A stretch of 64,000 nt of DNA from Eledone cirrhosa (GCA_964016885.1 OZ024743.1:178188001-178252000); one strand, 5' to 3'. Shown: positions 12,501 through 40,236, numbered from the stretch's first letter. Notes: generated from the letters alone by a model not told the origin. Translations and numbers: made by a program.

Positions 12501-12737
12501 AAGTTAGGTAATAATGACACAATGAAATATGTGGCCAAAGGTGTGTTGCCACCTTAATACTACAACAAAAAATACAGACAGGTTAAAGACGAACCTGGAC
12601 CTGATTGATAGATATTAGATATTAATCAATAAATATCTTCAATAGGCTTCTAGAAATCTGGAAGCTACACTCCAAGTTGTGTAATGCAAGTAAGTAATGT
12701 ATCCTAAGATGGAACGAGAATATATATATATATATAT

Positions 12738-13645: not shown

Positions 13646-14570
13646 ATATATATAGTTATGTTCTTAATTGTAATACACTTTAGTATTGTATCTGAATAAT
13701 ATTTTGAATAAATAATGTTCTGCAAAATATAGATTTTAGTTTGTATAAACGATATTTGAGAGAAAGAATGTGTTTGTGTGTGCTGGTGGTAGTGAGGGTA
13801 CATGTATGTAGTGGGGAAGAGTCTCTATATGTGGGGAAATATGTGGTGGGAGAGAATATGTGTGGTGGGAAAGAGTGAAAGAAGAAAAAACCCCAGTACA
13901 GGACTGGTACGTCATATATTATTATAAACCATGAATAGATGAAAGGCAAAATTATTTTAGCAGGAATTGAGCTGCGACTGCAGATATCCTGAATGAATAC
14001 TAGTAGGCAACTTTCATGATCAAACAATTCTCTAAATACGTTGTCTTGGGAGTTATGTTAAAAGTTCAATTGTTAAAAATGAGTGTTTGAAAAAAAAAGA
14101 AAGATTTTTTAAACATATAAATACTAAAACATGACAGACATTTGTGTCTGTCTGTCATAGCTTATGAAACATTGATTTTTTTTTCAACACCATCTTATCA
14201 ATTTTAATTAATTGAGTAATTTTTTTTTTTTGTGTGGTGTGTTTTGATTTGTTTAGATTGGTTGAATGTTATTGTTGGGTAGCATTGTCATCATCATTAT
14301 CATCATCATATGTCCATTTTCCACTCTAGCATGGGTTAGAGAAGTTGTCTTTTCGGGACCAATGGTTTGATTTAAAAAATATATCTGAAGTCTTAGGGAA
14401 AGAATCGAAATTTAAGAAAAACATAAAACAATTAAGCTAATCATTTGGTCCAACAATTCCCTAGAAAATTAATAGAAACCCAAATAGTTAGAATCAGTAG
14501 TTGTACTAAATTTATAGCTTACTGTATTATTCATTCATACATATATATGCACACACACACACACACACAT

Positions 14571-16651
14571 ATGTGGGAGAAAGACAGTCTCCCCCATATC
14601 GACCCAATAGAGGGACCAGCAGTGTTAGTCGAGGGGAGTATAATAAGTAAGGCAATCAAGATATGAAGACGGGTAAGGCGGCTGGGCCTTCGGAAATAGT
14701 TGCTGAGATGCTGAAGGCATCTGGCACGGTGGGACACACCATGGTCACCCGCATAGTTAACCAAGTCGTACAGAATGGGGTTGTTCCGAAGGACTGGCAT
14801 AGCAGCATCATCGTTAACTGTTATAAGAGTAAAGGAGACGCCCTAGATAAGAGTAACTATAGAGGCATTAAATTAATCGACCAGGTCATGAAGGTCACGG
14901 AAAAAGTAATAGCGCAACTAATCAGAGAGAGAATTGACCTAGATGAAATGCAGTTCGGGTTTGTGTCAGGCAAAAGTACCACAGACGCTCTTTTCATAGT
15001 ACGACAACTACAGGAGAAGTACCTAGCTAAAGGTAAACCCGTCTACTTAGCTTTTGTTGACTCGGAGAAAGCCTTCGACAGAGTCCCCCGCTCCATTATC
15101 TGGTGGGCTCTTAGAAAACTAGGCGTTGACGAATGGCTTGTGAGGGCTATACAAGCCATGTATAAAGAAACAGTCAGCAAGGTTAGAATTAACAACGAAT
15201 ATAGTGAAGAGTTTAGCGTAAAAGTTGGCGTTCATCAGGGCTCTGTTCTCAGCCCCCTACTATTTATTATTGCCCTTCAGGCTATAACAGAGGAGTTCAA
15301 GACCGGCTGCCCATGGGAACTCCTATACACAGACGACCTGACACTCATAGCGGAATCAATGGCCGAGCTAGAGAAGAAATTCCAAACATGGAAGCACGGC
15401 CTAGAGTCAAAAGGACTTAAAATTAACCTGGCTAAGACTAAAGTTCTAGTTTGTAGGAAAGAAAACAAGGCGGCGGTCCCTTCTGGGAAATGGTCGTGCT
15501 CGGTGTGTAGGAAAGGCGTAGGTAGAAACTCCATTTTATGTCCTAAATGCAAAGTATGGGTGCATAAAAGATGTAGTGGGATCACAGGTAAGCTAACTAA
15601 GAACATAGATTTTACATGTGGCCGGTGTTCTGGTGCAATAAGTAGCAGCAAGTGCCCACAAAATACTAGCTCTTTCAATTGCGCAGAGGGTTCTATAGAA
15701 ATAGTGGACAGCTTCCGTTACCCGGGCGATAAAATCAGCAGTGGGGGAGGGTGCTCTGAAAGTACAGTAGCTAGAGTCAGAACTGGTTGGAAAAAGTTCA
15801 GAGAGCGTATACCACTATTAGCTGCTAAAGGGTTCTCCCTAAAAATGAAAGGCAGGTTGTACGATGCCTGCATACGAACAGCAATGTTGCATGGCAGTGA
15901 GACCTGGGCATTGTGTGCAGAGGATATACGCAGACTAGAGAGGAACGAAGATTGCATGCTCCGCTGGATGTGTAACAGTAATATACGTGAACGGCAAAGC
16001 ATAAACGAACTAAGGAAAAAATTAGAGATAAGAGGGATCAGATGTTGTTTACTCGAGAGAAGGCTACGTTGGTATGGACACCTGATGCGCATGAAAGTCG
16101 ATAGCTGTATAACAAAGTGCAGGGCAATAAAGATAGACGGTAGCCACGGAATAGGCAGACCTAGAAAAACCTGGGACGAGCTGATAAACTCCGACCTCAC
16201 ACACTTACACCTCTCCAAGACAATGTCACTGGACCAAGACCTTTGGTGGTACTCAGTAACAGAGAAGACCCGCCTTGCCAGTAGGCATCTCTAACAAAAT
16301 ACACCCCGTCCCACCCCCACCACCCCATCCACACCACCCCGTTCTATGTAAAGTTATGTTGGTGCCGCGCCATCCAGGCCGAAACAAATGAGATCGTGTA
16401 GGTGTCACGACAAAAAAAACACACAGTCCACGCTGTAATGTGGCCGTGTAGGCAACACGGTAAAAACCTCCCAGACCCACACTGTAAATGTGGTTGGTGT
16501 TAGGAAGGGCATCCAACTGTAGAAAACCTGCCAGACAGTCCTATGCGAGCAAGACAATCACTCTTGCCTCAAGTGGGACTACCCGCGTCCAAACCCATGC
16601 AAGCGTGGAACACGGACGTTAAACGTTGATGATGATGATGATGATGATGAT
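14571..16651 (+). mobile_element. Young 5'-truncated RTE LINE with open 543-aa RT frame (YTDD) and PHD-like zinc finger
   Basis: ORF 14663..16294 has a full set of RT motifs. No endonuclease domain. 3' UTR and (GAT)n tail. Confidence 0.95.
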
Positions 16652-16785
16652 ATATATATATATAAGTTTATATATACAAGCACACACACATACACAAGAA
16701 GACTGTCTCTTATTCATATTCCCAGTGCTTAGCCCCAAACACTACAAGCAATAAAACCTGACACATATATATGTATATAGATACA

Positions 16786-16817
<32 letters not shown>

Positions 16818-17396
16818 CTTACACATACACACATATTTCTGGGTTCAGTCATTTATTCTAAGTAAATAAAAAGATTTCTATAAGTGACTGCTGAGCAAAG
16901 AATTTTACTTGAGGGTGGTGGAATTTGCAACAATAGCCATGACATATATATATAAAATCAGCATATAGAGAGAAGTACACAGAGATATGTCTATAATCAT
17001 AGATTTAAAACCACCAGTGTGAAGAACATATTAACTATGGAAAGAATGGTAAATACAAATCAATTAAAAAAACATACTAAAGCGTACTAACTATAACATC
17101 CATGTATATTATTATAGTTTAGAATAACTTCAACAAAATCTTAATGTTTTTATGATGTAATTAACCCCCTAAGATATAAAAAAATTATTTTCTATATATA
17201 ATCATAAAGTCCTCATGCAAGAATAAAAGATTTTTAAAAAATTATTTAAGAATTTGTTTAATCAATTATATTCATTCATCTATAACAGATTTTCCCAAAC
17301 TGCGTGATATCTCCCACTGCCAAATGGGCAATGAGCAACTGAACAGAAAATTGTGGGCATTTGGAAATGTTGGTTGATGATATAGGATTTTGTGTA

Positions 17397-17423
17397 TTAA
17401 GAAGGTATTTCAACATGTGCTAC
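17397..17423 (-). CDS. Candidate terminal coding exon B of the 6-Cys TM gene (VAHVEIPS*); inverted copy at 19930-19956
   Basis: Strong acceptor ATATTTTCTTTTCAG|GTA. Phase 0 matches exon 4. AT-rich putative 3' UTR with AATAAA near 16855. Confidence 0.35.
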   Translation of the reverse strand, partial: VAHVEIPS

Positions 17424-18274
17424 CTGAAAAGAAAATATTCAAAGGAGATATTTAAAGAAGCTGTATAAAAAAGAAAACCAGGAGGCTAAATGGGAAAAAC
17501 GAATCTGTAACAAACATTTTTGGTATATTTTTCAATATTTACTGTACAGGTGGGTAGTGGAAAATATAAAGGTGGGCAATGATGCCAAAAAGAGGTTAGG
17601 AACCCTTGATCTATAATAAGAATTTAGATAAATAATGAATTTTATAATTATTACATGTGGGAGCAATTAGATATTTTTAAAGTAAAATTTAACATTCAAC
17701 ACTGATAATAGAGGAGTAAGGTTTTAACATTTTTTTAAATGTTTACAAAGACTTAAAATTTCAAATTTCAGAAGGAAATTTTCAAACAACTCAAACCAAC
17801 TAGAGAATTAATTTATAGAGAATTTTAAAAAATGTTAATTCCCTAAATGAGAAAAAGTGCATTATGTAGGATCATCAACCATTATAGAGAAAGAAAGAAA
17901 TCTGGGCAAGAAACAATAGTTTCCTGTTAAATGATTATCATCCATTCTTTAAAAAAAAGAATAAAGTAAAAGTGAAAATAAAAATAACAAATGAAATATA
18001 AAAATATGAAAATAGTGAGTCAGAATATTGTAGACACAAGGAGTATTTTAAGAATTTTTAATTGATTAATTAATCCAATAAATGAAAGAATTAGATAATT
18101 CAAAACTATTAAATCAGATCTAATTATTTCCAGAGCTTCCATAGATTCACAGCTTTGTAAGTACTGATAGCATTAATTATAAAACACTGTAAGCAATATT
18201 CAATATTGGAATTCTGTTAGTATTAACATATTCTTCCATTGGCTAATCTAAAGTTTCAATCTGGCTCTCTGCTT

Positions 18275-18347
18275 TCTTTGAAATCAAATCCTGCCAAGGT
18301 CAACTTTGCCTTTCCTCCATTCCAGGTTGATAAAAAGAAGTATCAGT
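18275..18347 (+). mobile_element. Degenerate SINE fragment spanning the inner end of the left arm
   Basis: TCAAATCCTGCCAAGGTCAACTTTGCCTTTCCTCC...GATAAAAAGAAGTATCAG. Confidence 0.7.
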
Positions 18348-18958
18348 TTAGATCGGGAGGGGTGAGGTGTTCAATTCTTCCTCACTTCCGTTCCTTCCTT
18401 GGCTGGACGAAATCTGGTGTAATCAGATCTGTAGAGGGATGGGCACTTTAGCCCTCAAACCATCCATATCCAGCCAGAATTCTCTCACCTTTTTTCTGTT
18501 CAAACCAGCCATAACTGGCAGCTCATACTAATGTTAAGGTATTGTTTTCAAAAGAAATAAGATCAAAATCTCATAGCTTTGATATTATCTAAGATAAAGC
18601 CTTTACCATAAAAGTACAATAGTATACATAACCTAAATGCTAAAGTGCTGGTGTCCAAGAAACACTGTATGCCACTATAATGCTCCTACAACTCCAAGAG
18701 TTACAGGACCATACCATACTAAATAGGCGTTGATTTCCATCAGATACATATTGATTTATCAGCTTAACCATGTAATCCTTCCTCTTTTCTTTATATTATT
18801 GTACATTCCAAGTTTTTGAGGAATAAGGTTTTAAAAGCAGTTTTCTTTTTAAATGTATTCTTTTTTTTTATCATTCTAATTAGATCTCAGAAGTTTGGAA
18901 ACAATGGATTATGTGGTAGATTTCTGCATCTTAAAACCAAATTTTGGGTATTATTTTC

Positions 18959-19004
18959 AATATCGGTAGAGGGTCGGACGCCATGCTTTCCAGCATAGTT
19001 ACGT
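18959..19004 (+). mobile_element. 5' half of the split SINE
   Basis: TATCGGTAGAGGGTCGGACGCCATGCTTTCCAGCATAGTTACGT matches the 5' region of the SINE at 38885-39070. Preceded by ATTATTTTC. Confidence 0.8.
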
Positions 19005-19037
19005 TGAAAGGGACGTAACTATGCTGGAAAGCATGGC
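18980..19037. repeat. Perfect 25-bp-stem, 8-nt-loop hairpin at the palindrome junction
   Basis: GCCATGCTTTCCAGCATAGTTACGT-tgaaaggg-ACGTAACTATGCTGGAAAGCATGGC. Confidence 0.95.
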
Positions 19038-20534
19038 TGGAAAGCAAAGTTGACCTTGGCAGGATTTGATTTCAAAGAAAGCAGAGAGCCAGATTGAAAC
19101 TTTAGATTAGCCAATGGAAGAATATGTTAATACTAACAGAATTCCAATATTGAATATTGCTTACAGTGTTTTATAATTAATGCTATCAGTACTTACAAAG
19201 CTGTGAATCTATGGAAGCTCTGGAAATAATTAGATCTGATTTAATAGTTTTGAATTATCTAATTCTTTCATTTATTGGATTAATTAATCAATTAAAAATT
19301 CTTAAAATACTCCTTGTGTCTACAATATTCTGACTCACTATTTTCATATTTTTATATTTCATTTGTTATTTTTATTTTCATTTTTACTTTATTCTTTTTT
19401 TTAAAGAATGGATGATAATCATTTAACAGGAAACTATTGTTTCTTGCCCAGATTTCTTTCTTTCTCTATAATGGTTGATGATCCTACATAATGCACTTTT
19501 TCTCATTTAGGGAATTAACATTTTTTAAAATTCTCTATAAATTAATTCTCTAGTTGGTTTGAGTTGTTTGAAAATTTCCTTCTGAAATTTGAAATTTTAA
19601 GTCTTTGTAAACATTTAAAAAAATGTTAAAACCTTACTCCTCTATTATCAGTGTTGAATGTTAAATTTTACTTTAAAAATATCTAATTGCTCCCACATGT
19701 AATAATTATAAAATTCATTATTTATCTAAATTCTTATTATAGATCAAGGGTTCCTAACCTCTTTTTGGCATCATTGCCCACCTTTATATTTTCCACTACC
19801 CACCTGTACAGTAAATATTGAAAAATATACCAAAAATGTTTGTTACAGATTCGTTTTTCCCATTTAGCCTCCTGGTTTTCTTTTTTATACAGCTTCTTTA
19901 AATATCTCCTTTGAATATTTTCTTTTCAGGTAGCACATGTTGAAATACCTTCTTAATACACAAAATCCTATATCATCAACCAACATTTCCAAATGCCCAC
20001 AATTTTCTGTTCAGTTGCTCATTGCCCATTTGGCAGTGGGAGATATCACCCAGTTTGGGAAAATCTGTTATAGATGAATGAATATAATTGATTAAACAAA
20101 TTCTTAAATAATTTTTTAAAAATCTTTTATTCTTGCATGAGGACTTTATGATTATATATAGAAAATAATTTTTTTATATCTTAGGGGGTTAATTACATCA
20201 TAAAAACATTAAGATTTTGTTGAAGTTATTCTAAACTATAATAATATACATGGATGTTATAGTTAGTACGCTTTAGTATGTTTTTTTAATTGATTTGTAT
20301 TTACCATTCTTTCCATAGTTAATATGTTCTTCACACTGGTGGTTTTAAATCTATGATTATAGACATATCTCTGTGTACTTCTCTCTATATGCTGATTTTA
20401 TATATATATGTCATGGCTATTGTTGCAAATTCCACCACCCTCAAGTAAAATTCTTTGCTCAGCAGTCACTTATAGAAATCTTTTTATTTACTTAGAATAA
20501 ATGACTGAACCCAGAAATATGTGTGTATGTGTAA

Positions 20535-20571
<37 letters not shown>

Positions 20572-20705
20572 TGTATCTATATACATATATATGTGTCAGG
20601 TTTTATTGCTTGTAGTGTTTGGGGCTAAGCACTGGGAATATGAATAAGAGACAGTCTTCTTGTGTATGTGTGTGTGCTTGTATATATAAACTTATATATA
20701 TATAT

Positions 20706-22786
20706 ATCATCATCATCATCATCATCATCAACGTTTAACGTCCGTGTTCCACGCTTGCATGGGTTTGGACGCGGGTAGTCCCACTTGAGGCAAGAGTGAT
20801 TGTCTTGCTCGCATAGGACTGTCTGGCAGGTTTTCTACAGTTGGATGCCCTTCCTAACACCAACCACATTTACAGTGTGGGTCTGGGAGGTTTTTACCGT
20901 GTTGCCTACACGGCCACATTACAGCGTGGACTGTGTGTTTTTTTTGTCGTGACACCTACACGATCTCATTTGTTTCGGCCTGGATGGCGCGGCACCAACA
21001 TAACTTTACATAGAACGGGGTGGTGTGGATGGGGTGGTGGGGGTGGGACGGGGTGTATTTTGTTAGAGATGCCTACTGGCAAGGCGGGTCTTCTCTGTTA
21101 CTGAGTACCACCAAAGGTCTTGGTCCAGTGACATTGTCTTGGAGAGGTGTAAGTGTGTGAGGTCGGAGTTTATCAGCTCGTCCCAGGTTTTTCTAGGTCT
21201 GCCTATTCCGTGGCTACCGTCTATCTTTATTGCCCTGCACTTTGTTATACAGCTATCGACTTTCATGCGCATCACGTGTCCATACCAACGTAGCCTTCTC
21301 TCGAGTAAACAACATCTGATCCCTCTTATCTCTAATTTTTTCCTTAGTTCGTTTATGCTTTGCCGTTCACGTATATTACTGTTACACATCCAGCGGAGCA
21401 TGCAATCTTCGTTCCTCTCTAGTCTGCGTATATCCTCTGCACACAATGCCCAGGTCTCACTGCCATGCAACATTGCTGTTCGTATGCAGGCATCGTACAA
21501 CCTGCCTTTCATTTTTAGGGAGAACCCTTTAGCAGCTAATAGTGGTATAAGCTCTCTGAACTTTTTCCAACCAGTTCTGACTCTAGCTACTGTACTTTCA
21601 GAGCACCCTCCCCCACTGCTGATTTTATCGCCCGGGTAACGGAAGCTGTCCACTATTTCTATAGAACCCTCTGCGCAATTGAAAGAGCTAGTATTTTGTG
21701 GGCACTTGCTGCTACTTATTGCACCAGAACACCGGCCACATGTAAAATCTATGTTCTTAGTTAGCTTACCTGTGATCCCACTACATCTTTTATGCACCCA
21801 TACTTTGCATTTAGGACATAAAATGGAGTTTCTACCTACGCTTTTCCTACACACCGAGCACGACCATTTCCCAGAAGGGACCGCCGCCTTGTTTTCTTTC
21901 CTACAAACTAGAACTTTAGTCTTAGCCAGGTTAATTTTAAGTCCTTTTGACTCTAGGCCGTGCTTCCATGTTTGGAATTTCTTCTCTAGCTCGGCCATTG
22001 ATTCCGCTATGAGTGTCAGGTCGTCTGTGTATAGGAGTTCCCATGGGCAGCCGGTCTTGAACTCCTCTCTTATAGCCTGAAGGGCAATAATAAATAGTAG
22101 GGGGCTGAGAACAGAGCCCTGATGAACGCCAACTTTTACGCTAAACTCTTCACTATATTCGTTGTTAATTCTAACCTTGCTGACTGTTTCTTTATACATG
22201 GCTTGTATAGCCCTCACAAGCCATTCGTCAACGCCTAGTTTTCTAAGAGCCCACCAGATAATGGAGCGGGGGACTCTGTCGAAGGCTTTCTCCAAGTCAA
22301 CAAAAGCTAAGTAGACGGGTTTACCTTTAGCTAGGTACTTCTCCTGTAGTTGTCGTACTATGAAAAGAGCGTCTGTGGTACTTTTGCCTGACACAAACCC
22401 GAACTGCATTTCATCTAGGTCAATTCTCTCTCTGATTAGTTGCGCTATTACTTTTTCCGTGACCTTCATGACCTGGTCGATTAATTTAATGCCTCTATAG
22501 TTACTCTTATCTAGGGCGTCTCCTTTACCCTTATAACAGTTAACGATGATGCTGCTATGCCAGTCCTTCGGAACAACCCCATTCTGTACGACTTGGTTAA
22601 CTATGCGGGTGACCATGGTATGTCCCACCGTGCCAGATGCCTTCAGCATCTCAGCAACTATTTCCGAAGGCCCAGCCGCCTTACCCGTCTTCATATCTTG
22701 ATTGCCTTACTTATTATACTCCCCTCGACTAACACTGCTGGTCCCTCTATTGGGTCGATATGGGGGAGACTGTCTTTCTCCCACAT
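20706..22786 (-). mobile_element. Mirror RTE LINE
   Basis: ORF 21063..22694 differs from the left copy at 6 amino acids. Confidence 0.95.
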
Positions 22787-25121
22787 ATGTGTGTGTGTGT
22801 GTGTGTGCATATATATGTATGAATGAATAATACAGTAAGCTATAAATTTAGTACAACTACTGATTCTAACTATTTGGGTTTCTATTAATTTTCTAGGGAA
22901 TTGTTGGACCAAATGATTAGCTTAATTGTTTTATGTTTTTCTTAAATTTCGATTCTTTCCCTAAGACTTCAGATATATTTTTTAAATCAAACCATTGGTC
23001 CCGAAAAGACAACTTCTCTAACCCATGCTAGAGTGGAAAATGGACATATGATGATGATAATGATGATGACAATGCTACCCAACAATAACATTCAACCAAT
23101 CTAAACAAATCAAAACACACCACACAAAAAAAAAAATTACTCAATTAATTAAAATTGATAAGATGGTGTTGAAAAAAAAATCAATGTTTCATAAGCTATG
23201 ACAGACAGACACAAATGTCTGTCATGTTTTAGTATTTATATGTTTAAAAAATCTTTCTTTTTTTTTCAAACACTCATTTTTAACAATTGAACTTTTAACA
23301 TAACTCCCAAGACAACGTATTTAGAGAATTGTTTGATCATGAAAGTTGCCTACTAGTATTCATTCAGGATATCTGCAGTCGCAGCTCAATTCCTGCTAAA
23401 ATAATTTTGCCTTTCATCTATTCATGGTTTATAATAATATATGACGTACCAGTCCTGTACTGGGGTTTTTTCTTCTTTCACTCTTTCCCACCACACATAT
23501 TCTCTCCCACCACATATTTCCCCACATATAGAGACTCTTCCCCACTACATACATGTACCCTCACTACCACCAGCACACACAAACACATTCTTTCTCTCAA
23601 ATATCGTTTATACAAACTAAAATCTATATTTTGCAGAACATTATTTATTCAAAATATTATTCAGATACAATACTAAAGTGTATTACAATTAAGAACATAA
23701 CTATATATATATAGTCTTTAAGACTATACAGAGCATTTGATGTTTTTCCAAATTGAAGGATAAGTATTTTAAACTTTATTTTATCATGAGTTAAGGGTCT
23801 ATTGATTTTTTCCCTGGATTTCACTAAATTCTGTGGATGAATTTATATCCTGATTCTCCCTTGAGATGAGTTTGAATTATTTTTCCTACATCTTACGTTA
23901 ACTATTTTCCCCATCTTGACGACATAGTCGCATATATGTTATGGAATACTATTAGCTTCTTGCTAAAACAATTTCTATACCTTTCATTTATATTTATACT
24001 CGGATTCTTTTCCTTCAGTGCTTAAATTATCTGTGACTAATCCCGGTTTTTTTAATAAAAACTGCGATAATATTGCTGTTTGCTGAACTCCTTTTTTAGA
24101 GTTTTTTTTCGGAATGTATTTGACTGTTGTTTCTTGTAAACAAACATTCATTTTCATCCTGACGTCACTAGCCGTGTTTTTCCTCATGTGCGTTTTTCAT
24201 AATCACGCATGATGGTGAACTAGCCAGTTTTAGAATTCCCTTTTTGGCTTATAATTCTGTGGGAGCCCTGGTTATCTGTTGAGCTCTGCTGACGATTGAA
24301 ATCCAACCGTGACCATCTCCACTGAAAGTTTTCATGAAATAGTCTTTAAGACTATACAGAGCATTTGATATTTTTCCAAATTGAAGGATAAGTATTTTAA
24401 ACTTTATTTTATCATGAGTTAAGGGTCTATTGATTTTTCCCTTGATTTCACTAAATTCTGTGGATAAATTTGTATCCTGATGCTCTTTTGAGATGAGTTT
24501 GAACTATTTTTCCTACATCTTACGTTAACTATTTTTCCCATCTTGACGACATAGTCGCATATATGTTATGGAATACTGTTAACTTCTCGCTAAAACAATT
24601 TCTATACCTTTCATTTATATATATATATATATATATTCTCGTTCCATCTTAGGATACATTACTTACTTGCATTACACAACTTGGAGTGTAGCTTCCAGAT
24701 TTCTAGAAGCCTATTGAAGATATTTATTGATTAATATCTAATATCTATCAATCAGGTCCAGGTTCGTCTTTAACCTGTCTGTATTTTTTGTTGTAGTATT
24801 AAGGTGGCAACACACCTTTGGCCACATATTTCATTGTGTCATTATTACCTAACTTTACAGTCTGAGTTCAAATCCCGCCGAGGTTAACTTTGCCTTTCAT
24901 CCTTATGGGGTTGATAAAATAAAGTACCAGTAATGTACTGAGTAATTGCTGGCCTTGTGCCTAAAGTAGAAACAATTATTACCTAACTTATGTTGATTAC
25001 TCTGAGGATTAATTCATTGATTACTCTCTCATTGAGTGCTTTGTGAGAGTCTCCAAAAATCAATTGTGAACCTGCTACTCGCAGCTGCAACTTCAGTTAT
25101 ACTCATTATTATTATTATATA

Positions 25122-26168
25122 TCATCATCATCATCATCATCATCATCGTTTAACGTCCATATTCCACGCTTGCATGGGTTTGGACGGGGGTTTTCCCACT
25201 TGAGGCAAGAGTGGTTGTCTTGCTCGCATAGGACTGTCTGGCGGGTTTTCTACGGCTAGATGCCCTTCCTAACACCAACCACATTTACAGTGTGGGACTG
25301 GGAGGTTTTACCGTGTTGCCTACAAGGCCACATTACAGCGTGGACTGTGTGTTTTTTGTCGTGACACCTACACGACCTCATTTGTTTCGGCCTGGATGTT
25401 GTGACACCAACATAACTTTACAATGAAGGGGTGGTTTGGATGGGGTGGGGGTAGTGGGACGGGGTGTATTTTGTTAGAGGTGCCTACTGACTGTAGTAGG
25501 TTTCACTTTGTACTTAGGTAAGGTGGGTCTTCTCTATTACTGTGTAGCGGCAAAGCTCTCGGTCCAGTGACATTGTCTTGGAGAGGTGTAAGTGTGTGAG
25601 GTCGGAATTTATCAAGTCGTCCCAGGTTTTTCTGGGTCTGCCTACTCCGTGGCTACCGTCTATTTTTATTGCCCTGCACTTTTTTATACAGCTGTCGTCT
25701 TTTATCCGCATCACGTGACCATACCAACGTAGTCTTCTTTCGAGTAAACAACCTCTGATCCCTCTTATTTCTAATTTCTCCCTTAGTACGTTTATGCTTT
25801 GCCGTTCACGTATGTTACTATTACACATCCAGCGGAGCATGCAAGCTTCGTTTCTCTCCAATCTGCGTATATCCTCTGCACACAATGCCCAGGTCTCACT
25901 GCCATGTAACATTGCTGTTCGTATGCAGGCATCATACAGCCTGCCTTTCATTTTTAGAGAGAATCCTTTAGCGGCCAATAGTGGTATAAGCTCTCTGAAC
26001 TTTTTCCATCCCGTTCTGACCCTAGCTACTGTACTTTCAGAGCACCCTCCCCCACTGCTGATTTTATCACCCAGGTAACGGAAGCTGTCCACTATTTCTA
26101 TAGAACCATCTGTGCAATGGAATGAGTTAGTATTCTGTGGGCACTTGCTGCTACTTATTGCACCAGAA
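25122..26168 (-). mobile_element. Mirror RTE LINE 3' fragment
   Basis: ORF 25514..26092. Confidence 0.93.
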
Positions 26169-27965
26169 TATAAATATACACACAGTTAGTAAGGTACTTA
26201 ATACATTAGTAGAGTGTAAACATCATGTTTAATATAGAAATGGCTTCCACATGACTTCAACTGTGTCACTCTTCTGAGTATATATATATATAGTTGTGTA
26301 TAGTGGTAGCTATGGTGCTTCCATAGGCGGTATGCCAAAATTAGCACTCGATATTCATCAGAGTAGAGTGTAGATATTATAAAGGAAACGAAAAATCAGT
26401 GATGCATCTGGACTTAGTTTATTTTGTGTTACAAATGTTTCGCCGGCATGTAGCTCGAGTCATGGTCCTTGTATGGATCTGGCTGATTCTACTTCTGCGG
26501 GTTCTTTCAGACACGGGTGCTACGTCCGGAGCAAATTATATATATATATATATATATAGTCCTCGTCAGAGCAAGGTGTGACATGGCCATCTGTGGCTAG
26601 ACTTTCTTCCCGGCGTGGACAACCTGTCTAACCCATGCAAGCATGAAAAAATGGACGCTAAATGGTGATGATGATACAATCTACTACTATTCCAGGAAAG
26701 AAAATTCCTTTATTATTAGCTCCCTGAACTTGTCCATCCTATTCCTATTCTCTATATCCATATTTGACAATGACTTTACTTGGATAGTAACCTTTCCAAG
26801 TTTTTACTAATAATGACAACACATTTACCTGATTTTTTTTTATCCCAAGTGACTTGTAGGGACCCTTATACACAAAAAATTAGAATACACAGCAAACCCC
26901 CCAATTTACATATCAAAATTAGCTAGGCGCAAGTAATTGAAAAGTTATACATACAGATATTAAATAAAAAAAATTCTAACCATCCTAAAACTAAAAGGCC
27001 CATCTGAGGGCTCAAATAAATTGCTACGGCTGTCGTTTGTGGGGGCCCCCACTATAAGACTCTTGGTGCAATTTCCTCTGCCTTAAATTAGGCCCTGGAT
27101 ATGTGTACAGAAGATTTCTTCCAGAGAGATTGAGAGTTAGAAAGAGATAAAGAGGAAGAATTGACTCCATTATTAGAGTGATACTTTTTTTTTCAACCTC
27201 AAAATGATGAAAGGCACAAAGTTGAGCTCGACCGAATTTGAACGCAAACAGAGTCGGAATGAATACCACAAAGCCTTCTATCTGACGTTCAAACAACTCA
27301 ACTCTGTCATTTCGCCACCTTTTTATGATGTTAATACATCAATATATGAGATTGTCTGAGAAAAGGCTTCTCTAATTTCATCCTATATAAATTAGATATG
27401 AATCTGCTAATGACAAAAACATTTTTCTTTAAAATTTCATCATCTTAATCATAGTCTAAAACTGCGAAAATTTCCATTCATTATCAAAAATGTATGCGAA
27501 AACAATTTTGGAGGTGTTATTAAACTGATGTTATTTATCCCAGAAATAAATGGTAGATTGGGCTTGCTCATTAGCATCTATGTGTTTATGTGACTGATGA
27601 AAGACTGGGTGATGATAATCTAACATTCACTACACTTGTGGGTACAATCTACATACACACATGCGCGTCAGTGTGTTGAAACAATTATAGTATATATATA
27701 TAAATCAGGATGGACTCAGTTTGAAACTGGTTTGACATTACTCAACAGAGTACTCGATACTTGGGGTAGTAGAGTATGGTTATATTATAAAGAGTTGGGA
27801 CCCCGATGGCTGAGCTCTTGCCGTTTCAACAGCTAGTTCCAGGCAGACTGGAACCAGCTGTTGAAACGGCAAGAGCTCAGCTGTCGGCGTCCTGACTCTT
27901 TATAATATATATATATACATATACCTATTACTAAAATTCCGCTTAAACACACACACACAATATTA

Positions 27966-28703
27966 TCTATATATCTAAAACAGAGAATGTCTGACTGTCT
28001 GTCTGACTCCCTAAAACTCGAGAACCACCAAACCGATTGTTTTCAAACTTTACACATGTAATACTTATGGTCATGTGAGTGTTTTGAGCAAATAATATTC
28101 CAAATTTTCAATGCCCTGGGGACCGCATTAGGCGCCGTTTAGCGATCTCTCTATAATCTGTCTGTATGTCTGGCTGTTTGCATTACGACTTTATGACACT
28201 ATCTCTGTATGTGTGTGTGTGTGTGTATATGTATATATATAGTGTGTGTGTGTATATATATATCTATAGTGTGTAAGGTTTTTTAGAAATATTTACTTCT
28301 GCGTTCACAGATTGATTTTTTTTTAGTTTCAGAAGGTGCCGTTAAGGGTGAAAGCAGCGATTCTTTGATTAAACTTTAATCTCTTATTTTAATATATATA
28401 TTCGTGTACAGGTATTTTTGCATACACAAAAACAAAATATAAACAAACAAGGCCAGCGATTACATAGTCAACGGTTCGGAAATCATATGCATCACTGACG
28501 AGTTTATTCCTTACATTTTACTCTCAGGCACCCAATTAAGTTAAACCCCTGGTAATTTACGACAAATGTTTTTCATAAGCACAAAATGTAGACACCATCC
28601 CCAGGCCGAGGTATCCAGTACTTCTCTGTACCGTTTCAGAAAGGAGGGATAAACATGCCAATCTATTATTAGAATCCCGAGCAACACCAGGCCATTCTGC
28701 TAG
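27966..28703 (+). mobile_element. Mirror Helitron-like element; its 3' 180 bp are repeated at 29323-29502
   Basis: TC start at 27966, CTAG ends at 28703 and 29502 (offset 799). Confidence 0.8.
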
Positions 28704-28719
28704 TATATAGATATAGTTA

Positions 28720-31700
28720 CTAGGGAAGGATAGGAAATAACCTGGCATTGGGAATGATAAGGAATAACCTGGCCTAAGGAAGAATAAGAAATAACCTGGC
28801 ATTGGGAAGAATAAGGAATAACCTGGCATTGGGAAGGATAAGGAATAACCTGGCCTAGGGACGGATAAGAAATAACCTGGCGTTGGGAAGGATAAGGAAT
28901 AACCTGGTATTGGGAAGGATAAGGAATAACTTGACCTAGGGACGGATAATAAATAACCTGGCATTTGGGAAGGATAAGGAATAACCTGGCATTGGGAAGG
29001 ATAAGGAATAACCTGGTCTAGGGAAGGATAATGAATAACTTGAACTAGAGACGGATAAGAAATAACCTGGCATTGGGAAGGATAAGGAATAACCTGGCAT
29101 TGGGAAGCATAAGGAATAACCTGGCCTAAGGAAGGATAAGGAATAACTGGCCTAGGGAAGGATAATAAATAACCTGGCATTGGGAAGGATAAGGAATAAC
29201 CTGGTCTAGGGAAGGATAAGAAATAACCTGGCATTGGGAAGGATGAGGAATAACCTGGTCTAGGGAAGGATAAGAAATAATCTGGCGTTGGGAAGGATAA
29301 AGAATAACCTGGCCTAGGGACGTCAGGCACCCAATTAAGTTAAACCCCTGGTAATTTACGACAAATGTTTTTCATAAGCACAAAATGTAGACACCATCCC
29401 CAGGCCGAGGTATCCAGTACTTCTCTGTACCGTTTCAGAAAGGAGGGATAAACATGCCAATCTATTATTAGAATCCCGAGCAACGCCAGGCCATTCTGCT
29501 AGTATATAGATATAGTTACTAGGGAAGGATAGGAAATAACCTGGCATTGGGAATGATAAGGAATAACCTGGCCTAAGGAAGAATAAGAAATAACCTGGCA
29601 TTGGGAAGAATAAGGAATAACCTGGCATTGGGAAGGATAAGGAATAACCTGGCCTAGGGACGGATAAGAAATAACCTGGCGTTGGGAAGGATAAGGAATA
29701 ACCTGGTATTGGGAAGGATAAGGAATAACTTGACCTAGGGACGGATAATAAATAACCTGGCATTGGGAAGGATAAGGAATAACCTGGCATTGGGAAGGAT
29801 AAGGAATAACCTGGCCTAAGGAAGGATAAGAAATAACCTGGCATTGGGAAGGATAAGGAATAACCTGGTCTAGGGAAGGATAATGAATAACTTGAACTAG
29901 AGACGGATAAGAAATAACCTGGCATTGGGAAGGATAAGAAATGACCTGGCATTGGGAAGGATAAGGAATAACTGGCCTAGGGAAGGATAATAAATAACCT
30001 GGCATTGGGAAGGATAAGGAATAACCTGGTCTAGGGAAGGATAAGAAATAACCTGGCATTGGGAAGGATGAGGAATAACCTGGTCTAGGGAAGGATAAGA
30101 AATAATCTGGCGTTGGGAAGGATAAGGAATAACCTGGCCTAGGGACGGATAAGAAATAACCTGGCATTGGGAAGGATAAGAAATAACCTGGCATTGGGAA
30201 GGATAAGGAATAACCTGGCCTAGGGAAGGATAATAAATAACCTGGCATTGGGAAGGATAAGGAATAACCTGGCCTAAGGAAGTATAAGGAATATCCTGGC
30301 ATTGGGAAGTATAAGGAATAACCTGGCCTAGGGACGGGTAAGAAATAACCTGGCATTGGGAAGGATAAGGAATAACCTGGCATTGGGAAGGATAAGGAAT
30401 AACCTGGCCTAAGGGAGGATAAGGAATATCCTGGCATTGGGAAGGATAAAGAATAACCTGACCTAGGGACGGCTAAGAAATAACCTGGCATTGGGAAGAA
30501 TAAGGAATAACCTGGCATTGGGATGGATAAGGAATAACCTGGTCTAGGGACGGATAAGAAATAACCTGGCATTGGGAAGAATAAATAGTAAACTGGCATT
30601 GGGAACGATACGGAATAACCTGGCCGAAGGACGGATAAGAAATAACCTAGCAGTGAAAGGATAAGGAATAACCTGGCATTGGGAAGGATAAGGAATAACC
30701 TGGCCTAGGGAAGGATAATAAATAACCTGGCATTGAGAAGGATAAGGAATAACCTGGTATAGGGAAGGATAAGAAATAATCTGGCGTTGGGAAGGATAAG
30801 GAATAACCTGGCCTAGGGACGGATAAGAAATAACCTGGCATTGGGAAGGATAAGGAATAACCTGGCATTGGGAAGGATACGGAATAACCTGGCCGAGGGA
30901 CGGATAAGAAATAACCTATCAGTGGGAAGGATAAGGAATAACCTGGCATTGGGAAGGATAAGGAATAACCTGGCTTTGGGAAGGATAAGGAATAACCTGG
31001 CATTGGGAAGGATAAGGAATAACCTGGCCTAAGGAAGGATAAGAAATAACCTGGCATTGGGAAGGATAAGGAATAACCTGGTCTAGGGAAGGATAATGAA
31101 TAACTTGAACTAGAGACGGATAAGAAATAACCTGGCATTGGGAAGGATAAGAAATGACCTGGCATTGGGAAGGATAAGGAATAACTGGCCTAGGGAAGGA
31201 TAATAAATAACCTGGCATTGGGAAGGATAAGGAATAACCTGGTCTAGGGAAGGATAAGAAATAACCTGGCATTGGGAAGGATGAGGAATAACCTGGTCTA
31301 GGGAAGGATAAGAAATAATCTGGCGTTGGGAAGGATAAGGAATAACCTGGCCTAGGGACGGATAAGAAATAACCTGGCATTGGGAAGGATAAGGAATAAC
31401 CTGGCATTGGGAAGGATAAGGAATAACCTGGCCTAGGGAAGGATAATAAATAACCTGGCATTGGGAAGGATAATAAATAACTTGGCATTGGGAAGGATAA
31501 GGAATAACCTGGCCTAGGGACGGATAAGAAATAACCTGGCATTGGGAAGGATAAGGAATAACCTGGCCTAAGGAAGTATAAGGAATATCCTGGCATTGGG
31601 AAGTATAAGGAATAACCTGGCCTAGGGACGGGTAAGAAATAACCTGGCATTGGGAAGGATAAGGAATAACCTGGCATTGGGAAGGATAAGGAATAACCTG

Positions 31701-33211
31701 GCCTAAGGGAGGATAAGGAATATCCTGGCATTGGGAAGGATAAAGAATAACCTGACCTAGGGACGGCTAAGAAATAACCTGGCATTGGGAAGAATAAGGA
31801 ATAACCTGGCATTGGGATGGATAAGGAATAACCTGGTCTAGGGACGGATAAGAAATAACCTGGCATTGGGAAGAATAAATAGTAAACTGGCATTGGGAAC
31901 GATACGGAATAACCTGGCCGAAGGACGGATAAGAAATAACCTAGCAGTGAAAGGATAAGGAATAACCTGGCATTGGGAAGGATAAGGAATAACCTGGCCT
32001 AGGGAAGGATAATAAATAACCTGGCATTGAGAAGGATAAGGAATAACCTGGTATAGGGAAGGATAAGAAATAATCTGGCGTTGGGAAGGATAAGGAATAA
32101 CCTGGCCTAGGGACGGATAAGAAATAACCTGGCATTGGGAAGGATAAGGAATAACCTGGCATTGGGAAGGATACGGAATAACCTGGCCGAGGGACGGATA
32201 AGAAATAACCTATCAGTGGGAAGGATAAGGAATAACCTGGCATTGGGAAGGATAAGGAATAACCTGGCTTTGGGAAGGATAAGGAATAACCTGGCATTGG
32301 GAAGGATAAGGAATAACCTGGTCTAGGGAAGGATAAGAAATAATCTGGCGTTGGGAAGGATAAGGAATAACCTGGCCTAGGGACGGATAAGAAATGACCT
32401 GGCATTGGGGGGAAGGATAAGGAATAACCTGGCATTGGGAAGGATAAGGAATAACCTGGCCTAGGGACGGATAAGAAATAACCTGGCTTTGGGAAGGATA
32501 AGGAATAACCTGGCATTGGGAAGGATAAGGAATAACCTGGCCTAAGGGAGGATAAGGAATATCCTGGCATTGGGAAGGATAAGGAATAACCCGGCCTAGG
32601 GACGGCTAAGAAATAACCTGGCATTGGGAAGAATAAGGAATAACCTGGCATTGGCAAAGATAAGGAATAACCTGGTCTAGGGACGGATAAGAAATAACCT
32701 GGCATTGGGAAGAATAAAAAGTAACCTGGCATTGGGAAGGATACAGAATAACCTGGCCTAGGGCAGGCTAATGAATAATTTGGCCTAGGGACGGATAATA
32801 AATAACCTGGCATTGGGAAGGATAAGGAATATCTTGGCATTGGGAAGGATAAGGAATAACCTGGTCTAGGGAAGGATAAGGAATAACTTGACCTAGGGAC
32901 GGATAAGAAATAAACTGGCCTAGGGACGGATAAGAAATAACCTGGCATTGGGAAGGATAAGGAATAACCTGGCATTGGGTAGGGTAAGGAATAACCTGGC
33001 CTAGGGACGGATGAGAAATAACCTGGCATTGGGAAGGATAAGGAATAACCTGACATTGGGAAGGATAAGGAATAACCTGGTCTAGGGAAGGATAAGGAAT
33101 AACCTGGCCTAGGGACGGATAAGAAATAACCTGGCATTGGGAAGGATAAGGAATAACCTGGCCTAAGAAAGGATAAGGAATAACCTGGCATTGGGAAGGA
33201 TAAGGAATAAC
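28720..33211. repeat. Mirror 27-bp satellite array, expanded to ~4.5 kb and interrupted at 29323-29518 by a duplicated Helitron 3' end
   Basis: Reverse-complement units. Diagnostic variants recur at an offset of 1294 bp (30647 vs 31941). Confidence 0.97.
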
Positions 33212-33440
33212 GACGACAACCACGACAACCGTTATAAATCTATCTGGATACAGAGAAATATTGCTATTGATTTTATTCATTCTATCCAGTGACAGAAACA
33301 GTGGCTGTAGTAGTGAGATGGTGCATGAATTTATTTAGTTTTACCTGTCAACAGGTAAAAATAAGTAATTTTTCTTTCTAGAGTTGACGATAGCAAACTA
33401 TCGTTTTAGATATATTAAAGTATCAAATAAACTGAATGGG

Positions 33441-33492
<52 letters not shown>

Positions 33493-33493
<1 letters not shown>

Positions 33494-36420
33494 TTGGGGA
33501 GGGTTATATTTGTGTAATATTGCCAGAATTAATAACAGAACACACTCACTGTTTGGTTGGTTTTCGCTTCTGTGTCTTTTATATCGGTAATCTAATTTAT
33601 TCGGTCCTCGATGTTGCCATTGACTGACCGACGGTCAAAAATAATACAGATATAATATAGACACAAACACATATATATAGTTTATCATAAATCTTTCGTT
33701 GCACATCTGCAACATCGTCAGTGGTGCTATTGTTTCCTCCCGTTGCATTGTATGTCTACGCCATTTTTATTTAGTCTGTCTATATATTTATTTATTTATT
33801 TGCTTGTTCGTTTATTTTATTTTGTCTTCTTTGCGCATGCGTTTACGTGTGTGTATTGTGTTTTGTTTGATGTCTGTTCGTGATTGGGTGACTAGTGTGT
33901 GTTTATATGTTTGTTGTTATTGTGCTTGTGTATGTATTTATTTATTTATTTATCTATTTATTTATTTATTTATACTTCTCTTAGGTCAGTGTTGTTTGTT
34001 TTGGTGTTGTTGTTATTCCATTCATTCTTTCTGTTTAGTCTTGGCCTTCTAAGTTCTATTTCACTGGCCTCTCTGATTTGCCTATCTGTTGGGTCATTTC
34101 TATGTTTAGATATTATTCTAATTTCTATGTTGTCTATGTTACCGTCGTGTTGTTGTCTGGCATGTTCGTATAGTACTGACCCGTTTTATCGTCCTTTTAG
34201 TTCCCCCCAGTGTTGGTCTATCCTTTCACCTATGCTACGAGCTGTCTCATCTCTGTATGTTGTTGTCATGTTTCTGCAAGTACCCTCTGTACATCTTATG
34301 CTATAGACTACGTTTCTAGTTTTACAGTTTATCCGGGGGTTTACCTTACATATGATACATTTCCTATTAGTACAGTGGGTTTTCTTAAAACAGTAGGTTT
34401 TGCTGATCAGGGATTTTATGGTGGTTCCTGGCTTTTCTACCACCTTAATCTTTAAGTGGGTCTTTCTCAGGGCCTTTCTACACTGGTTAGCTAATTTCCC
34501 TTCAGGGGTAGCGTCCACAAACATGACACTCTGGTATCTCTGGTTGTCGTACCATGAGGTGGCTTTCCCTATCTTATGTCTAGCCCTATCTAAGCTATTC
34601 CATGATTTGCTCCTGTATAATGGGCAAATTCCTTTCATGTCCAGTTCTATGAGGGTCTTATACTTCTCCATGGCTCCTTCGTATACTCTGACTCTGTCTC
34701 TTTGGTTGTAGCCAGAGAACTGCATGCGGTTGATGAAGTGTTGGATGTGTCTTTCCATTTCTGTTGGGTCGCACATGCGGGACACATTCTTCATCACTCG
34801 TACCAAATCTGCGATCAGAATACTAAACTTAGCGCTACTGGACATTGCTGAGTTTTTGAGTATCAGGTATTTGGAGGCCATGGGTTTAGCATAGTGTGAG
34901 TGGAGAATTTGGGCTCTCTCGTCTATAGTGTTAATCCAGAGTTCCGTGTCTAATACAGGTAGTCTATTGTTAGGGTGTTTGGAAGGGAAGTCGATAGTTA
35001 CAGTTATACTCTGGTGTATGGAATTAGCTATCTGCTGGATGCTTTCGATTGTGCTACGTTCTAAATCAAACTTGTTAGTGCTCTCTAGTGGGGATGTTCT
35101 TATAACTATATTGATATCGTCTACATAACGAGAGTACATGATGAGGTCTATGGAGCTCTCATTAAGGAGATCTTTAAGTCTCCTTTCCCACCATACCATG
35201 AAAAGGTTGGCAACATCACCAGCTATGCTGACGCCAATGGCTGCTCCCTCATTTTGGGTGTAGATCTCGTTGAACTTAAATATGTGGCCCTTTAGGGTAG
35301 TTTTGATACTAGCCCCTATTGCATGTGCGACCATTTTTCTTACCTGGTCATTGTTTTGGGGGGTCCGTATGGCTTTGGTCCACCCAATCCACCTTCCCAT
35401 GTGAGTCTTTTTTGCCATTGAGGTTATGGTGGGGGGTCTACCTCTTATGGGTCTACTAGGGCAGAAACGTCTAAGGTCATGGCTATCTAGGTAGTCAGTG
35501 TCGTAGGTAAGTCTAAGTAGGAGGCCCAGTTCGCCTGTGTCGACGTCGCAGAACTCCACCTCACTCTCAATGATCATCTCCACACATTTTTTCACAGCAA
35601 AATCAATGTTAATGGATGGGTTCAGTGACACCACATCCATGCTGCCTATTATGCAGTTGGATAGGTTCTTGTTTTTGTTGCACTCACTGATTCTGCTGAG
35701 GAGGTCCTCTGTACTGTCACATACATCCGGGGACATCTTGATTATGGGGCGTATAACCATTGAGAGGAAGTAGGAGATCCTGTAGTTGTTAGCTATATTA
35801 GCTCCGCACACGGGTCTTGTTGGTGGTCCTGTTGTCGGGTCGTCAACTGCCTTGTGGTCTTTGCGGAGCCCATACAAGGGTGGTATGCCATTGTTGGACG
35901 CCTGGAAGTTGTTGGCAGTGCGTCTGCTTGGCTTTAGGATGTCAGTCCACATCATGATGTGAGCGTTGAGGATTTTCTCTCTCCCATCATGTGTTTGTTG
36001 TGCAATTTCGCTCGTGTTGGTGATGTGGGGCTGCATAGCCTTGATATAGTTCGGCATGCTATCTATTGACATCCTACCGGACTTATCCGTGGGTAGACAT
36101 ACTACCTCACCATCCCTTGTGCGCTGCTGAGGCTAACCCAGCCTTCTACAGGTTTCCTCCCAAGTTGTTGGGCCTCTGGTCTGCTCTGTCTCTTAGTATA
36201 CCGGTCTACTATTTGTCTAATCTTATTTGTAGCTATGGTGAACTGTGCCTCTGTCTCGTCATCTATTTGTTGTGGCATGCAAACTCTTTTATTAAAGGAT
36301 AACCTCGTAGGGTAGATATTACCCATCTTATATCTTTTGTCAGCTGGGTTGAAAAATAGTTTCTCTAAGGGGTTGTCATTATATCTATCATCATAGTCGT
36401 GTGTGTTGCTATTATTGTTA
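33493..36420 (-). mobile_element. Mirror copy of the Penelope-like element
   Basis: ORF 34186..36072 has the same premature stop plus a G>D change in the GIY-YIG YxGET motif (YRDET). Confidence 0.92.
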
Positions 36421-37323
36421 TCAGAACACTTCGTGAAACATAAGTATTACATGTGTAAAGTTTGCAAACAGTCGGTTTGGGGCTTCTCTACAATACTAAA
36501 CGGTAAAATAGTAACTTTTGTTCTCGTAAAGGCACGTAAGTAAACAAAAACTGAAGCTATTATAGCGATGATTTTCTTTACCGGCTTTAATTTTTAGTGT
36601 TGTGTGAAGTATATAACCTGCAAACCTGATTTTTGAATCGCAGCAGGGTCGACTTTGTTTCACTCGCTCCACTAAAAGTTGGATTTTCTTTCCTCACGGT
36701 ATGAAGAAGAGACTGACTAATATATAGTTACCGGCTTTCATTTTTAGTGTTGCGTGAAATATATAACCGCCTTAGGTAAGCTTAGTATTGCTGACGTAAT
36801 GCAGACAGTCAGACATACAGACAGATATTATAAGGGTGCGACGTTATATGTATGTATCTACCTAAAAAGAGAAACACAGAATTATAGAGCGAGATTGCTA
36901 AATCGCCTGATGCGGTCCCTAAGGCATTGAAAATTTGAAATTTGTTTTGTTCAGAACACTCCCTGAAACATAAATATTACATGTGTAAAGTTTGAAAACA
37001 GTCGATTGGGTGGTTCTCGAGTTTTAGGGATTCGAACTCACACACACACAGACAGACATCCTCAGTTTTATATATATAGATATTTCGAAGGTACTGTACT
37101 GTTTTTTCAGTACGTCCTCATCAGATAAAATACATGAATTGATGTATGACATACCTCAACTGTCTTGATAGTTCAATTCCAGTATTGGCAGTACTGGAAT
37201 TGAAATTAGGCTGCTCAGCCGTTAATATGCATAAGCTGTTAATATGCATAAACTGCTACAAGGATAAAGGAGACGCCCTAGATAGGAATAACTATAGAGG
37301 CATTAAATTAATCCACCAGGTCA

Positions 37324-37435
37324 CGCCGAGGTTAACTTTGCCTTTCATCCTTACGGGGGGGGGGGGGGGGTCCGATAAAATAAAGTACCAGTAATGAACT
37401 GGGTAATTGCTGGCCTTGTGCCTAAAGTAGAAACA
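37324..37435 (+). mobile_element. 3' half of the split SINE
   Basis: CGCCGAGGTTAACTTTGCCTTTCATCC...GGCCTTGTGCCTAAAGTAGAAACA, followed by ATTATTTTC (37436-37444). Confidence 0.85.
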
Positions 37436-37835
37436 ATTATTTTCTATTTATTTAATCAATATAAATGTCTGAAGAGACATAGTAAGCCATGATAGAGTAG
37501 TACTTCTTGCAGTTGAGAAACAAAATAACAAGATATACTGAGAAGTCTTCTTCACCCACTTTTTCCTGAGAGGGTCATGGGGACAGTTGCTATTTCTCTG
37601 AATTGAGAGAACAAGGTATCATCATCATCATCATTTTATGTCCACTTTTCCCTGCTTGCAAGGGTGTATGTGAATATAAAACTATAAAATTGAATTTTTT
37701 TTAAATTAAATAAAATAGGGAAGGATAATACAAGGCAAAATAAGCATATAAAAACTGGGAAGCAAGAGAAGCTGTCATCAATAGAATTGTGTTTCTTTAT
37801 TGAGATAATGAGAACTATACCACCCCATTCTTCGT

Positions 37836-39092: not shown

Positions 39093-40236
39093 GTGTAATG
39101 ACATGTTTGTGTAGTACCCACCCCTTAACACAGTGTAATGGTATGTTTGTGTAGTACCCACCCCTTAATACAGTGTAATGGTATGTTTGTGTAGTACCCA
39201 CCCCTTAACACAGTGTAATGGTATGTTTGTGTAGTACCCACCCCTTAACACAGTGTAATGGTATGTTTGTGTAGTACCCACCCCTTAACACAGTGTAATG
39301 GTATGTTTGTGTAGTACCCACCCCTTAATACAGTGAAATGGTATGTTTGTGTAGTACCCACCCCTTAACAGTGTAATGGTGTGTTTGTGTAGTACCCACC
39401 CCTTAACACAGTGTAATGATATGCTTGTGTAGTGCCCACCCCTTAACAGTGTAATGGTATGTTTGTGTAGTACCCACCCCTTAACACAGCATAATGGTAT
39501 GTTTGCGTAGTGCCCACCCCTTAACAGTGAAATGGTATGTTTGTGTAATACCCACCCCTTAACACAGTGTAATGGTATGTTTGTGTAGTACCCACCCCTT
39601 AACACAGTGTAATGGTATGTTTGTGTAGTACCCACCCCTTAACACAGTGTAATGGTATGTTTGTGTAGTACCCACCCCTTAACACAGTGTAATGGTATGT
39701 TTGTGTAGTACCCACCCCTTAACAGTGTAATGGTATGTTTGTGTAGTACCCACCCCTTAACACAGTGTAATGGTATGTTTGTGTAGTACCCACCCCTTAA
39801 CACAGTGAAATGGTATGTTTGTGTAGTACCCACCCCTTAACAGTGTAATGGTATGTTTGTGTAGTACCCACCCCTTAACACAGTGTAATGATATGTTTGT
39901 GTAGTACCCACCCCTTAACACAGTGAAATGGTATGTTTGTGTAGTACCCACCCCTTAACACAGTGAAATGGTATGTTTGTGTAGTACCCACCCCTTAACA
40001 GTGTAATGGTATGCTTGTGTAGTACCCACCCCTTAATACAGTGTAATGGTATGTTTGTGTAGTACCCACCCCTTAATAGAGTGTAATGGTGTGTTTTTGT
40101 AGTACCCACCCCTTAACACAGTGTAATGGTATGTTTATGTAGTACCCACCCCTTAATACAGCGTAATGGTGTGTTTGTGTAGTACCCACCCCTTAACACA
40201 GTGTAATGGTATGGTTGTGTAGTACCTACCCCTTAA
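39093..40236. repeat. 40-bp minisatellite GTGTAATGGTATGTTTGTGTAGTACCCACCCCTTAACACA, ~29 units including 38-bp variants
   Basis: Direct periodicity. Confidence 0.97.

Follow-up and report, generated by a model that had tools for sequence, protein, structure and literature searches.

An inverted duplication inside a single SINE insertion, probably formed by repeated template switching

The window analysed here, a stretch of DNA of 64,000 nucleotides, contains a long inverted duplication whose right arm very probably interrupts one SINE insertion, with the left arm being the original. We judge it probable, reading from one allele, that the right arm arose in one event from a nascent strand that changed templates at least four times during replication. 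The resulting palindrome, 35.5 kb long with 734 bp of spacer, would be passive and not a mobile or composite element, as the insert ends inside a LINE reading frame and inside the SINE, and 19 nt were lost while none were duplicated. The locus is best regarded as a further case of an ordinary, known type of mutation, namely an inverted duplication by template switching that is accompanied by a small deletion. In most palindromes the original arm and the start of the event cannot be told; here a target-site duplication (TSD) marks the empty site and two cut repeats give the direction. Additionally, 39 letters record an inter-strand switch together with slips, which connects a duplication of kilobase scale in an apparent marine invertebrate with the short four-point events known from ape genomes. 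Only a single locus is concerned and its cargo contains no recognised host gene; we therefore offer it as a worked case, valuable because the event can be read so fully, and as a starting point for a search across the genome rather than as new biology.

Two SINE halves bracketed by one target-site duplication

The 9-mer ATTATTTTC occurs on the plus strand at 18950-18958 and again at 37436-37444, and the match between both copies extends on neither side of these 9 bp. SINE similarity begins directly after the first copy (18958/9) and stops directly before the second, which bears out the initial annotation, where a single TSD had been placed outside both halves of one element. The SINE 5' part (18959-19004, plus strand) matches the SINE copy at 38.9 kb at 39/46 positions and is truncated at its 5' end by about 17 nt relative to the family head. 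The 3' part (37324-37435, plus strand) matches the copies at 38.9 kb and 12.4 kb at 93/99 and 95/99 positions, respectively; two older SINE copies at 42 kb reach only 56/67 and 78/93 in the same comparison. It was correctly noted at the outset that the 5' half stops at 19004 and that the 3' half resumes at 37324, which is the first base after the arm since arm pairing ends with 37323 opposite 1788. When subfamily and overlap were compared, as had been proposed, the halves were found to lie on the same strand, to be complementary parts with no forward overlap and to share one young subfamily as the nearest relative. Neither inner end has a TSD of its own, in that no repeat of the right flank precedes 37324 and none follows 19004 for the 5' part.

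Taken alone, the TSD is evidence of modest strength for one split SINE. Other family copies have TSDs that begin with ATTATT, as had been observed before; for example, the copy at 12.4 kb has an exact 15-bp TSD (12367-12381/12501-12515) and the copy at ~38.9 kb an 11-bp TSD (about 38873-38883/39076-39086). Because family TSDs start with these six letters anyway, only the last 3 letters of the 9-mer are informative. The 9-mer has 5 occurrences in the window with both strands counted, and TTC follows ATTATT at 5/102 window sites, the two TSD sites included, so that a chance match has a likelihood of ~3-5%. The argument therefore rests on the TSD together with the complementary halves and the position of both breaks at the arm ends. 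One could suppose instead that two separate SINE copies were each cut by rearrangement and that their flanks match by chance, considering that the TSD is only 9 bp long, that chance could supply the few letters beyond the family preference and that the family is very abundant (family reads over 18959-19004 are ~36,000 deep per RAD run). This supposition is exceedingly improbable given that the halves are complementary, belong to one subfamily, lack repeats at their inner ends and each stop at the arm boundary, which are the same properties that give the TSD its weight.

The halves are separated by 18,319 bp, consisting of a 39-nt complex junction and the inverted copy at 19044-37323. The right arm thus lies inside one SINE as initially annotated, except that the arm proper begins at 19044 behind the junction and not right after 19004. 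The family continuation behind 19004 was read from loose ends (41 contigs in run X1, 61 in run X2 and ~22,000 reads per RAD run, with 22,401 in X4; these runs are described below) that agree at 0.92-0.94, and the ancestral letters are those of the resulting family consensus. In forward orientation 25 nt of SINE family sequence are missing, including the B-box-like stretch; 6 of these are kept inverted at 19007-19012 and 19 are lost. These counts replace an earlier estimate of ~15-20 nt for the gap. They also modify the ancestral allele that had been proposed, in which 19004 was joined to 37324: the site is the right one, but the ancestral allele would have had 25 more nt in between.

An ARAGORN tRNA scan and an Rfam scan each gave 0 matches. 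The SINE has TSDs and a high copy number, and its head carries putative A- and B-box-like stretches as judged by eye against the box consensus; it is probably of tRNA type and may resemble the octopus SINE families OK and OR. A G16 run at 37355-37370 is found in the 3' part where other copies have ~4 G. This run is the sole G/C run of at least 12 in the window and is located 31 nt outside the outer junction. Stalling at a G-quadruplex formed by the run was considered as a trigger and rejected, as the run is retained and lies outside the junction. In the known pattern of events triggered by G-quadruplexes the G tract itself is deleted.

The SINE parts differ from the family majority letters at ~2/146 sites plus the G run, which, set against the arm divergence of 0.19%, weakly suggests that the SINE predates the duplication. 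This hint bears on the proposal that the structure was made during the SINE's own insertion by a reverse transcriptase that switched to flanking DNA and back. Such an origin would explain why one TSD brackets the whole, and there are RT genes in the cargo. However, the 5' part is present in both orientations, suggesting that the element was already double-stranded DNA at the time, and with the hint of an older SINE added we set the probability of an insertion-time origin at practically nil.

Arm structure and direction of copying

Self-comparison of the window pairs 1788-8633 with 37323-30493 and 8063-18315 with 29320-19039, and base-level checks fix the arm limits at 1788-18309 and 19044-37323. 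The left arm (plus strand, 16,522 bp) is continuous with both flanks, and the right arm, its inverted copy (minus strand, 18,280 bp), is longer through minisatellite changes. The spacer between the long arms (18310-19043) is single-copy from 18310 to 18979. Two repeats are uncut on the left and cut on the right. In the left arm, 141/141 nt spanning 1787/1788 align to another LINE copy with the reading frame open, whereas across 37323/37324 only the first 71/141 nt align to the LINE and are followed by SINE and stop codons. Similarly, an old SINE fragment at the inner arm end (18263-18347, plus strand, 79% to the young copy), which is the landing site in the model given below, aligns through 18309 in the left arm, whereas in the right arm its alignment ends where the arm begins. 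The left arm is therefore taken to be the original and the right arm the inserted copy, in agreement with the initial annotation.

Outside the arrays the arms are 99.81% identical, with 26 of 13,787 aligned bases being different (0.19%) and 3 indels. The 26 differences, which are located outside the 27-bp minisatellite, comprise 13 transitions and 13 transversions, and the ones nearest to the joins are 337 and 842 bp away. Fourteen could be polarised, as 10/26 are without an outgroup and two more (5606 and 17972) were dropped for poor outgroup matches; among these the derived letter is on the left arm in 6 cases and on the right in 8 (p 0.79). This split is as expected of age or of an allelic template and not of read errors on one arm. 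An excess of new point mutations on the copied tract is a feature of FoSTeS/MMBIR, and error-prone copying of the right arm was ruled out by the 6 versus 8 split.

The presence of differences on both arms (6 and 8) would also follow if a DSB in the SINE had been repaired from the homologue, the right-hand end having used the homologue as an inverted template before end-joining. The 0.19% arm difference and the minisatellite change would then represent old allelic differences, and the event itself could be very recent. Minisatellite and microsatellite lengths do differ between the arms, as is often the case between alleles; the small deletion and 2 untemplated letters would fit end-joining, and the mirror order of events is possible as well. 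However, equal divergence on both arms is also given by age, and the identical 25-bp stem described below fits a template on the same molecule, although it is too short to decide the matter. Overall, we find repair from the homologue distinctly unlikely.

Junction anatomy and a template-switching model

The inner junction opens with a hairpin. Its loop (19005-19012, plus strand) consists of 2 unexplained letters (19005-19006), which the family consensus does not predict, and of 6 nt (19007-19012) that correspond, in reverse complement, to the first 6 nt with which the family continues behind 19004. Its stem (19013-19037, minus strand) is a perfect 25-bp inverted copy of 18980-19004 and is the only stem of at least 18 bp with a loop of at most 20 in the window outside simple repeats. 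At 19036-19046 (plus strand) there is an 11-nt re-copy of 19023-19033 that reflects a slip on 2 bp of microhomology. The last 3 letters of the re-copy are common to the old SINE at 18307-18309 and constitute the microhomology at the arm entry, and the letters before them match the old SINE at 8/9 with a gap. The outer join at 37323/37324 is either blunt with respect to the consensus or a slip sharing 2 letters, the latter reading making use of a direct repeat of 6 bp that the donor has at a distance of 9 nt. Shared letters at the joins of the insert thus amount to 2 bp at the slip, 3 bp at 19044 and 0 or 2 bp at 37324. A fifth junction, found in the right-arm minisatellite only (29322-29323, minus strand), leads from the counterpart of 8832 to ~7790 with no shared letters and duplicates ~0.8 kb.

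In the event that we propose, the nascent strand would halt at 19004 and re-prime 6-8 nt further along on the opposite parental strand, using a micro inverted repeat of 3-4 bp in the SINE, from which 31-33 nt would be copied backwards. The strand would then slip back 13 nt, re-copy 9 nt and jump ~670 bp to the look-alike stretch in the older SINE (3 bp exact, 8/9 with gap), where the copying of ~16.5 kb would start. Its return to the SINE, 25 nt past the leaving point, may have occurred bluntly or via a 9-nt slip and 2-bp microhomology. The mirror order, with a fork moving in the other direction, would yield the identical product. The family consensus contains a self-complementary word of 4 letters immediately ahead of the 6 nt, and 3 of these letters recur immediately behind them, so that a stalled end could prime the opposite strand; this word, which is read from the consensus, would not explain the 2 extra letters.

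PMC5453318 states that spacer inversion is impossible in intra-strand switches and that the order 3-1-2-4 leads to an inverted repeat with an inverted spacer. When placed beside the four-point switches 3-1-2-4 and 1-3-4-2 described there, the present locus has point 2 ahead of point 1 with the spacer inverted, and return point 4 is ahead of points 1 and 2 here too, as the SINE resumes 25 nt beyond 19004. The order 3-1-2-4 and the inverted spacer therefore speak against an intra-strand switch or a simple hairpin fold-back. The four-point model covers short events and by the paper's own statement excludes long or repeated switches. While its events are short clusters with two switches, the present locus involves at least four switches, a 16.5-kb tract and extra joins at 19037/8 and 19044, and thus is no simple member of the class. 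PMC6902434 attributes junctions that combine several join-points, microhomology, microhomeology and short templated insertions to iterative template switching. Since the junction matches both the order 3-1-2-4 and iterative switching, one replication-based event is taken as most likely.

A history in two steps was also considered, in which an inter-strand switch makes a near-perfect 17-kb palindrome centred at 19008 and a later breakage at the centre deletes ~670 bp of the right arm, leaving the 25-bp stem and the 734-bp spacer. Secondary deletion is how palindromic junctions erode according to an argument in PMC10766186, and the right-arm minisatellite has further private rearrangements. However, such a history needs two events, the second of which must spare a perfect 25-bp stem at the exact centre, and the 11-nt re-copy at the join would fit a polymerase that restarts repeatedly. 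We view two steps as unlikely but as the main rival, ahead of repair from the homologue, and a single replicative event as the preferred reading.

The micro inverted repeat of the SINE before the B box might conceivably act as a recurrent seed of inter-strand switches that spawns multi-kilobase palindromes genome-wide. We hold this extension to be very doubtful. If true, TSD-dated and polarised palindromes would provide a genome-wide assay of long-palindrome birth in an invertebrate.

Relation to described rearrangements

The FoSTeS/MMBIR rearrangements of the DUP-NML-INV/DUP type at PLP1 (PMC6902434) resemble the present locus in their multi-join junctions, 2-3 bp of microhomology, microhomeology, short templated insertions and a copy-neutral stretch between duplicated parts. 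Those cases concern human disease and are far larger, and oppositely oriented Alu or LINE pairs form chimeric elements in them; here, in contrast, the two SINEs have the same orientation and only a few letters in common at the join. The fold-back inverted duplications in PMC3907307 also have a single-copy spacer, of 766-70,466 bp there and 734 bp here, and 3 bp of microhomology at the join of spacer and arm. Unlike these, the present locus lacks a terminal deletion, as the distal chromosome is intact and continues 25 nt past the switch, and its loop is inverted, an outcome not produced by hairpin fold-back. PMC10766186 lists inverted duplications with a copy pattern of 1-2-1-0-1, which is close to the present locus, and the ODIRA-derived DUP/INV-NML-DEL events reported there combine an inverted duplication, a neutral spacer and a deletion, as is the case here. 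Differences from these ODIRA events are that no triplicated segment survives at the present locus and that the deletion is only 19 nt. A search of mainly open-access literature found no report on such a combination.

Read and contig support

Three runs of one sample, possibly the source of the assembly, contain 84-87% of the sampled window words; X1 and X2 are from this sample. Of six runs, X1, X2, X4 and X5 were used, and contigs were examined over 18310-20500. An X1 contig (19010-19959, 1 other letter) crosses the re-copied stretch and extends to the left of the arm start by 34 letters and of the slip by 28, and an X2 contig has its first base precisely at 19044, the position at which the sequence should branch. 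Contig depth, which is a rough measure here, with an arm stretch more AT-rich than the spacer, is 25.3 and 26.7 on the arm versus 12.3 on the spacer in X1 and 12.4 and 13.1 versus 6.69 in X2, the spacer having about half the depth of the arm. Pooled, the arm to spacer ratio is 2.02 +/- 0.26 for an assumed read length of 150 nt, based on 2 arm contigs per run with three contigs of 61-76 nt (27.2, 27.7 and 15) left out; a ratio of 1 corresponds to no duplication and 1.5 to a heterozygote.

These data bear on whether two haplotypes or a chimeric fold-back read were joined head to head during assembly. At 2/2 arm-differing sites (19381 and 20050) the contigs show the left-arm letter only, which leaves the right-arm variants putative and is in keeping with an artefact, and the runs may come from the source sample. 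Additionally, no piece among those listed from 18310-20500 bridges 19004/19005 or 37323/37324. On the other side, one contig crosses the novel joins at 19037-19046 and another breaks exactly at the arm start, the depth ratio of ~2:1 is 5 standard errors from 1:1 at the assumed read length, and an artefact would require two separate chimeric joins 25 nt apart within one SINE. Because contigs cross part of the inner junction and the arm to spacer depth is ~2:1, an assembly artefact is unlikely, and indeed we rate it as very improbable; the duplication is real with high probability.

The RAD runs X4 and X5, from two other samples, cover repeats only and have almost no depth on unique DNA. Opposite-strand joints in the RAD reads are best explained by family reads matching either the hairpin of the reference or the old SINE, and not by further fold-backs. 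Two metagenome scans, one using the left flank and one a family motif, gave 0 matches, and no empty allele was seen in these RAD and metagenome data. At 18795, in the single-copy spacer, contigs of sample S1 differ from the window letter, which indicates a heterozygous site, another individual or an error in the window.

Cargo and neighbouring repeats

The cargo consists of a minisatellite together with pieces of Penelope-like elements, LINEs and SINEs. The LINE reading frame at its outer end (412-1968, minus strand; RVT_1 and a weak PHD match) is open across 1788, and its right-arm copy is cut at 37323. Named relatives of this RT+PHD LINE have 49-56% identity and occur in a hydrozoan, a clam and amphioxus, which points to an element of marine invertebrate type. 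The Penelope-like RT frame (2979-4925, plus strand, 648 aa; copy at 34186-36132, minus strand) has an Atlas value of 0.95 to clusters with HTH_animal/RVT_1, some of them with GIY-YIG, and a weak RVT_1 match (E 0.003). Its two copies differ by 4 substitutions, all of which change an amino acid; one of these lies in a putative GIY-YIG-like motif of the right copy. The 27-bp minisatellite (5942-8633, plus strand, ~100 units) has its right-arm copy at 28723-33211. The right-arm array is rearranged over 28524-33211 with an internal duplication of ~1.3 kb and a second duplication, of ~0.8 kb, in which 200 bp of sequence flanking the array are included, and the left arm is without either. A Pfam scan of 27/48 frames of at least 70 aa found no family of a host gene, transposase or integrase at cut-off; 2 more frames were scanned separately, the remaining frames overlap known elements or the minisatellite, and short exons or regulatory DNA would escape such a scan.

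The window is rich in other repeats. Copies of the RT+PHD non-LTR family are located at 8-1968, 11171-12240, 14651-16656, 47833-49557 and 59474-61737; they are 77-94% alike and several have long open frames. A second, GC-rich LINE type with RVT_1 and zf-RVT is found at 62427-63998 (minus strand), with an inverted older fragment at 58198-58714. Inside the arm there is a 288-bp direct repeat of 95% identity (12731-13018 and near 13358-13645), mirrored at 23711-23998/24339-24625. Imperfect self-inverted stretches at 9447-9575 (129 bp, 88%) and 56548-56665 (118 bp, 76%) are possibly MITE-like. A 40-bp minisatellite of 29 units (39093-40236) starts at a distance of 7 bp from the 5' TSD belonging to the full-length SINE copy at 38.9 kb, and a 33-bp minisatellite of 138 units (51356-55875) has an extreme GC skew (~0.77) with several of its frames being free of stops.
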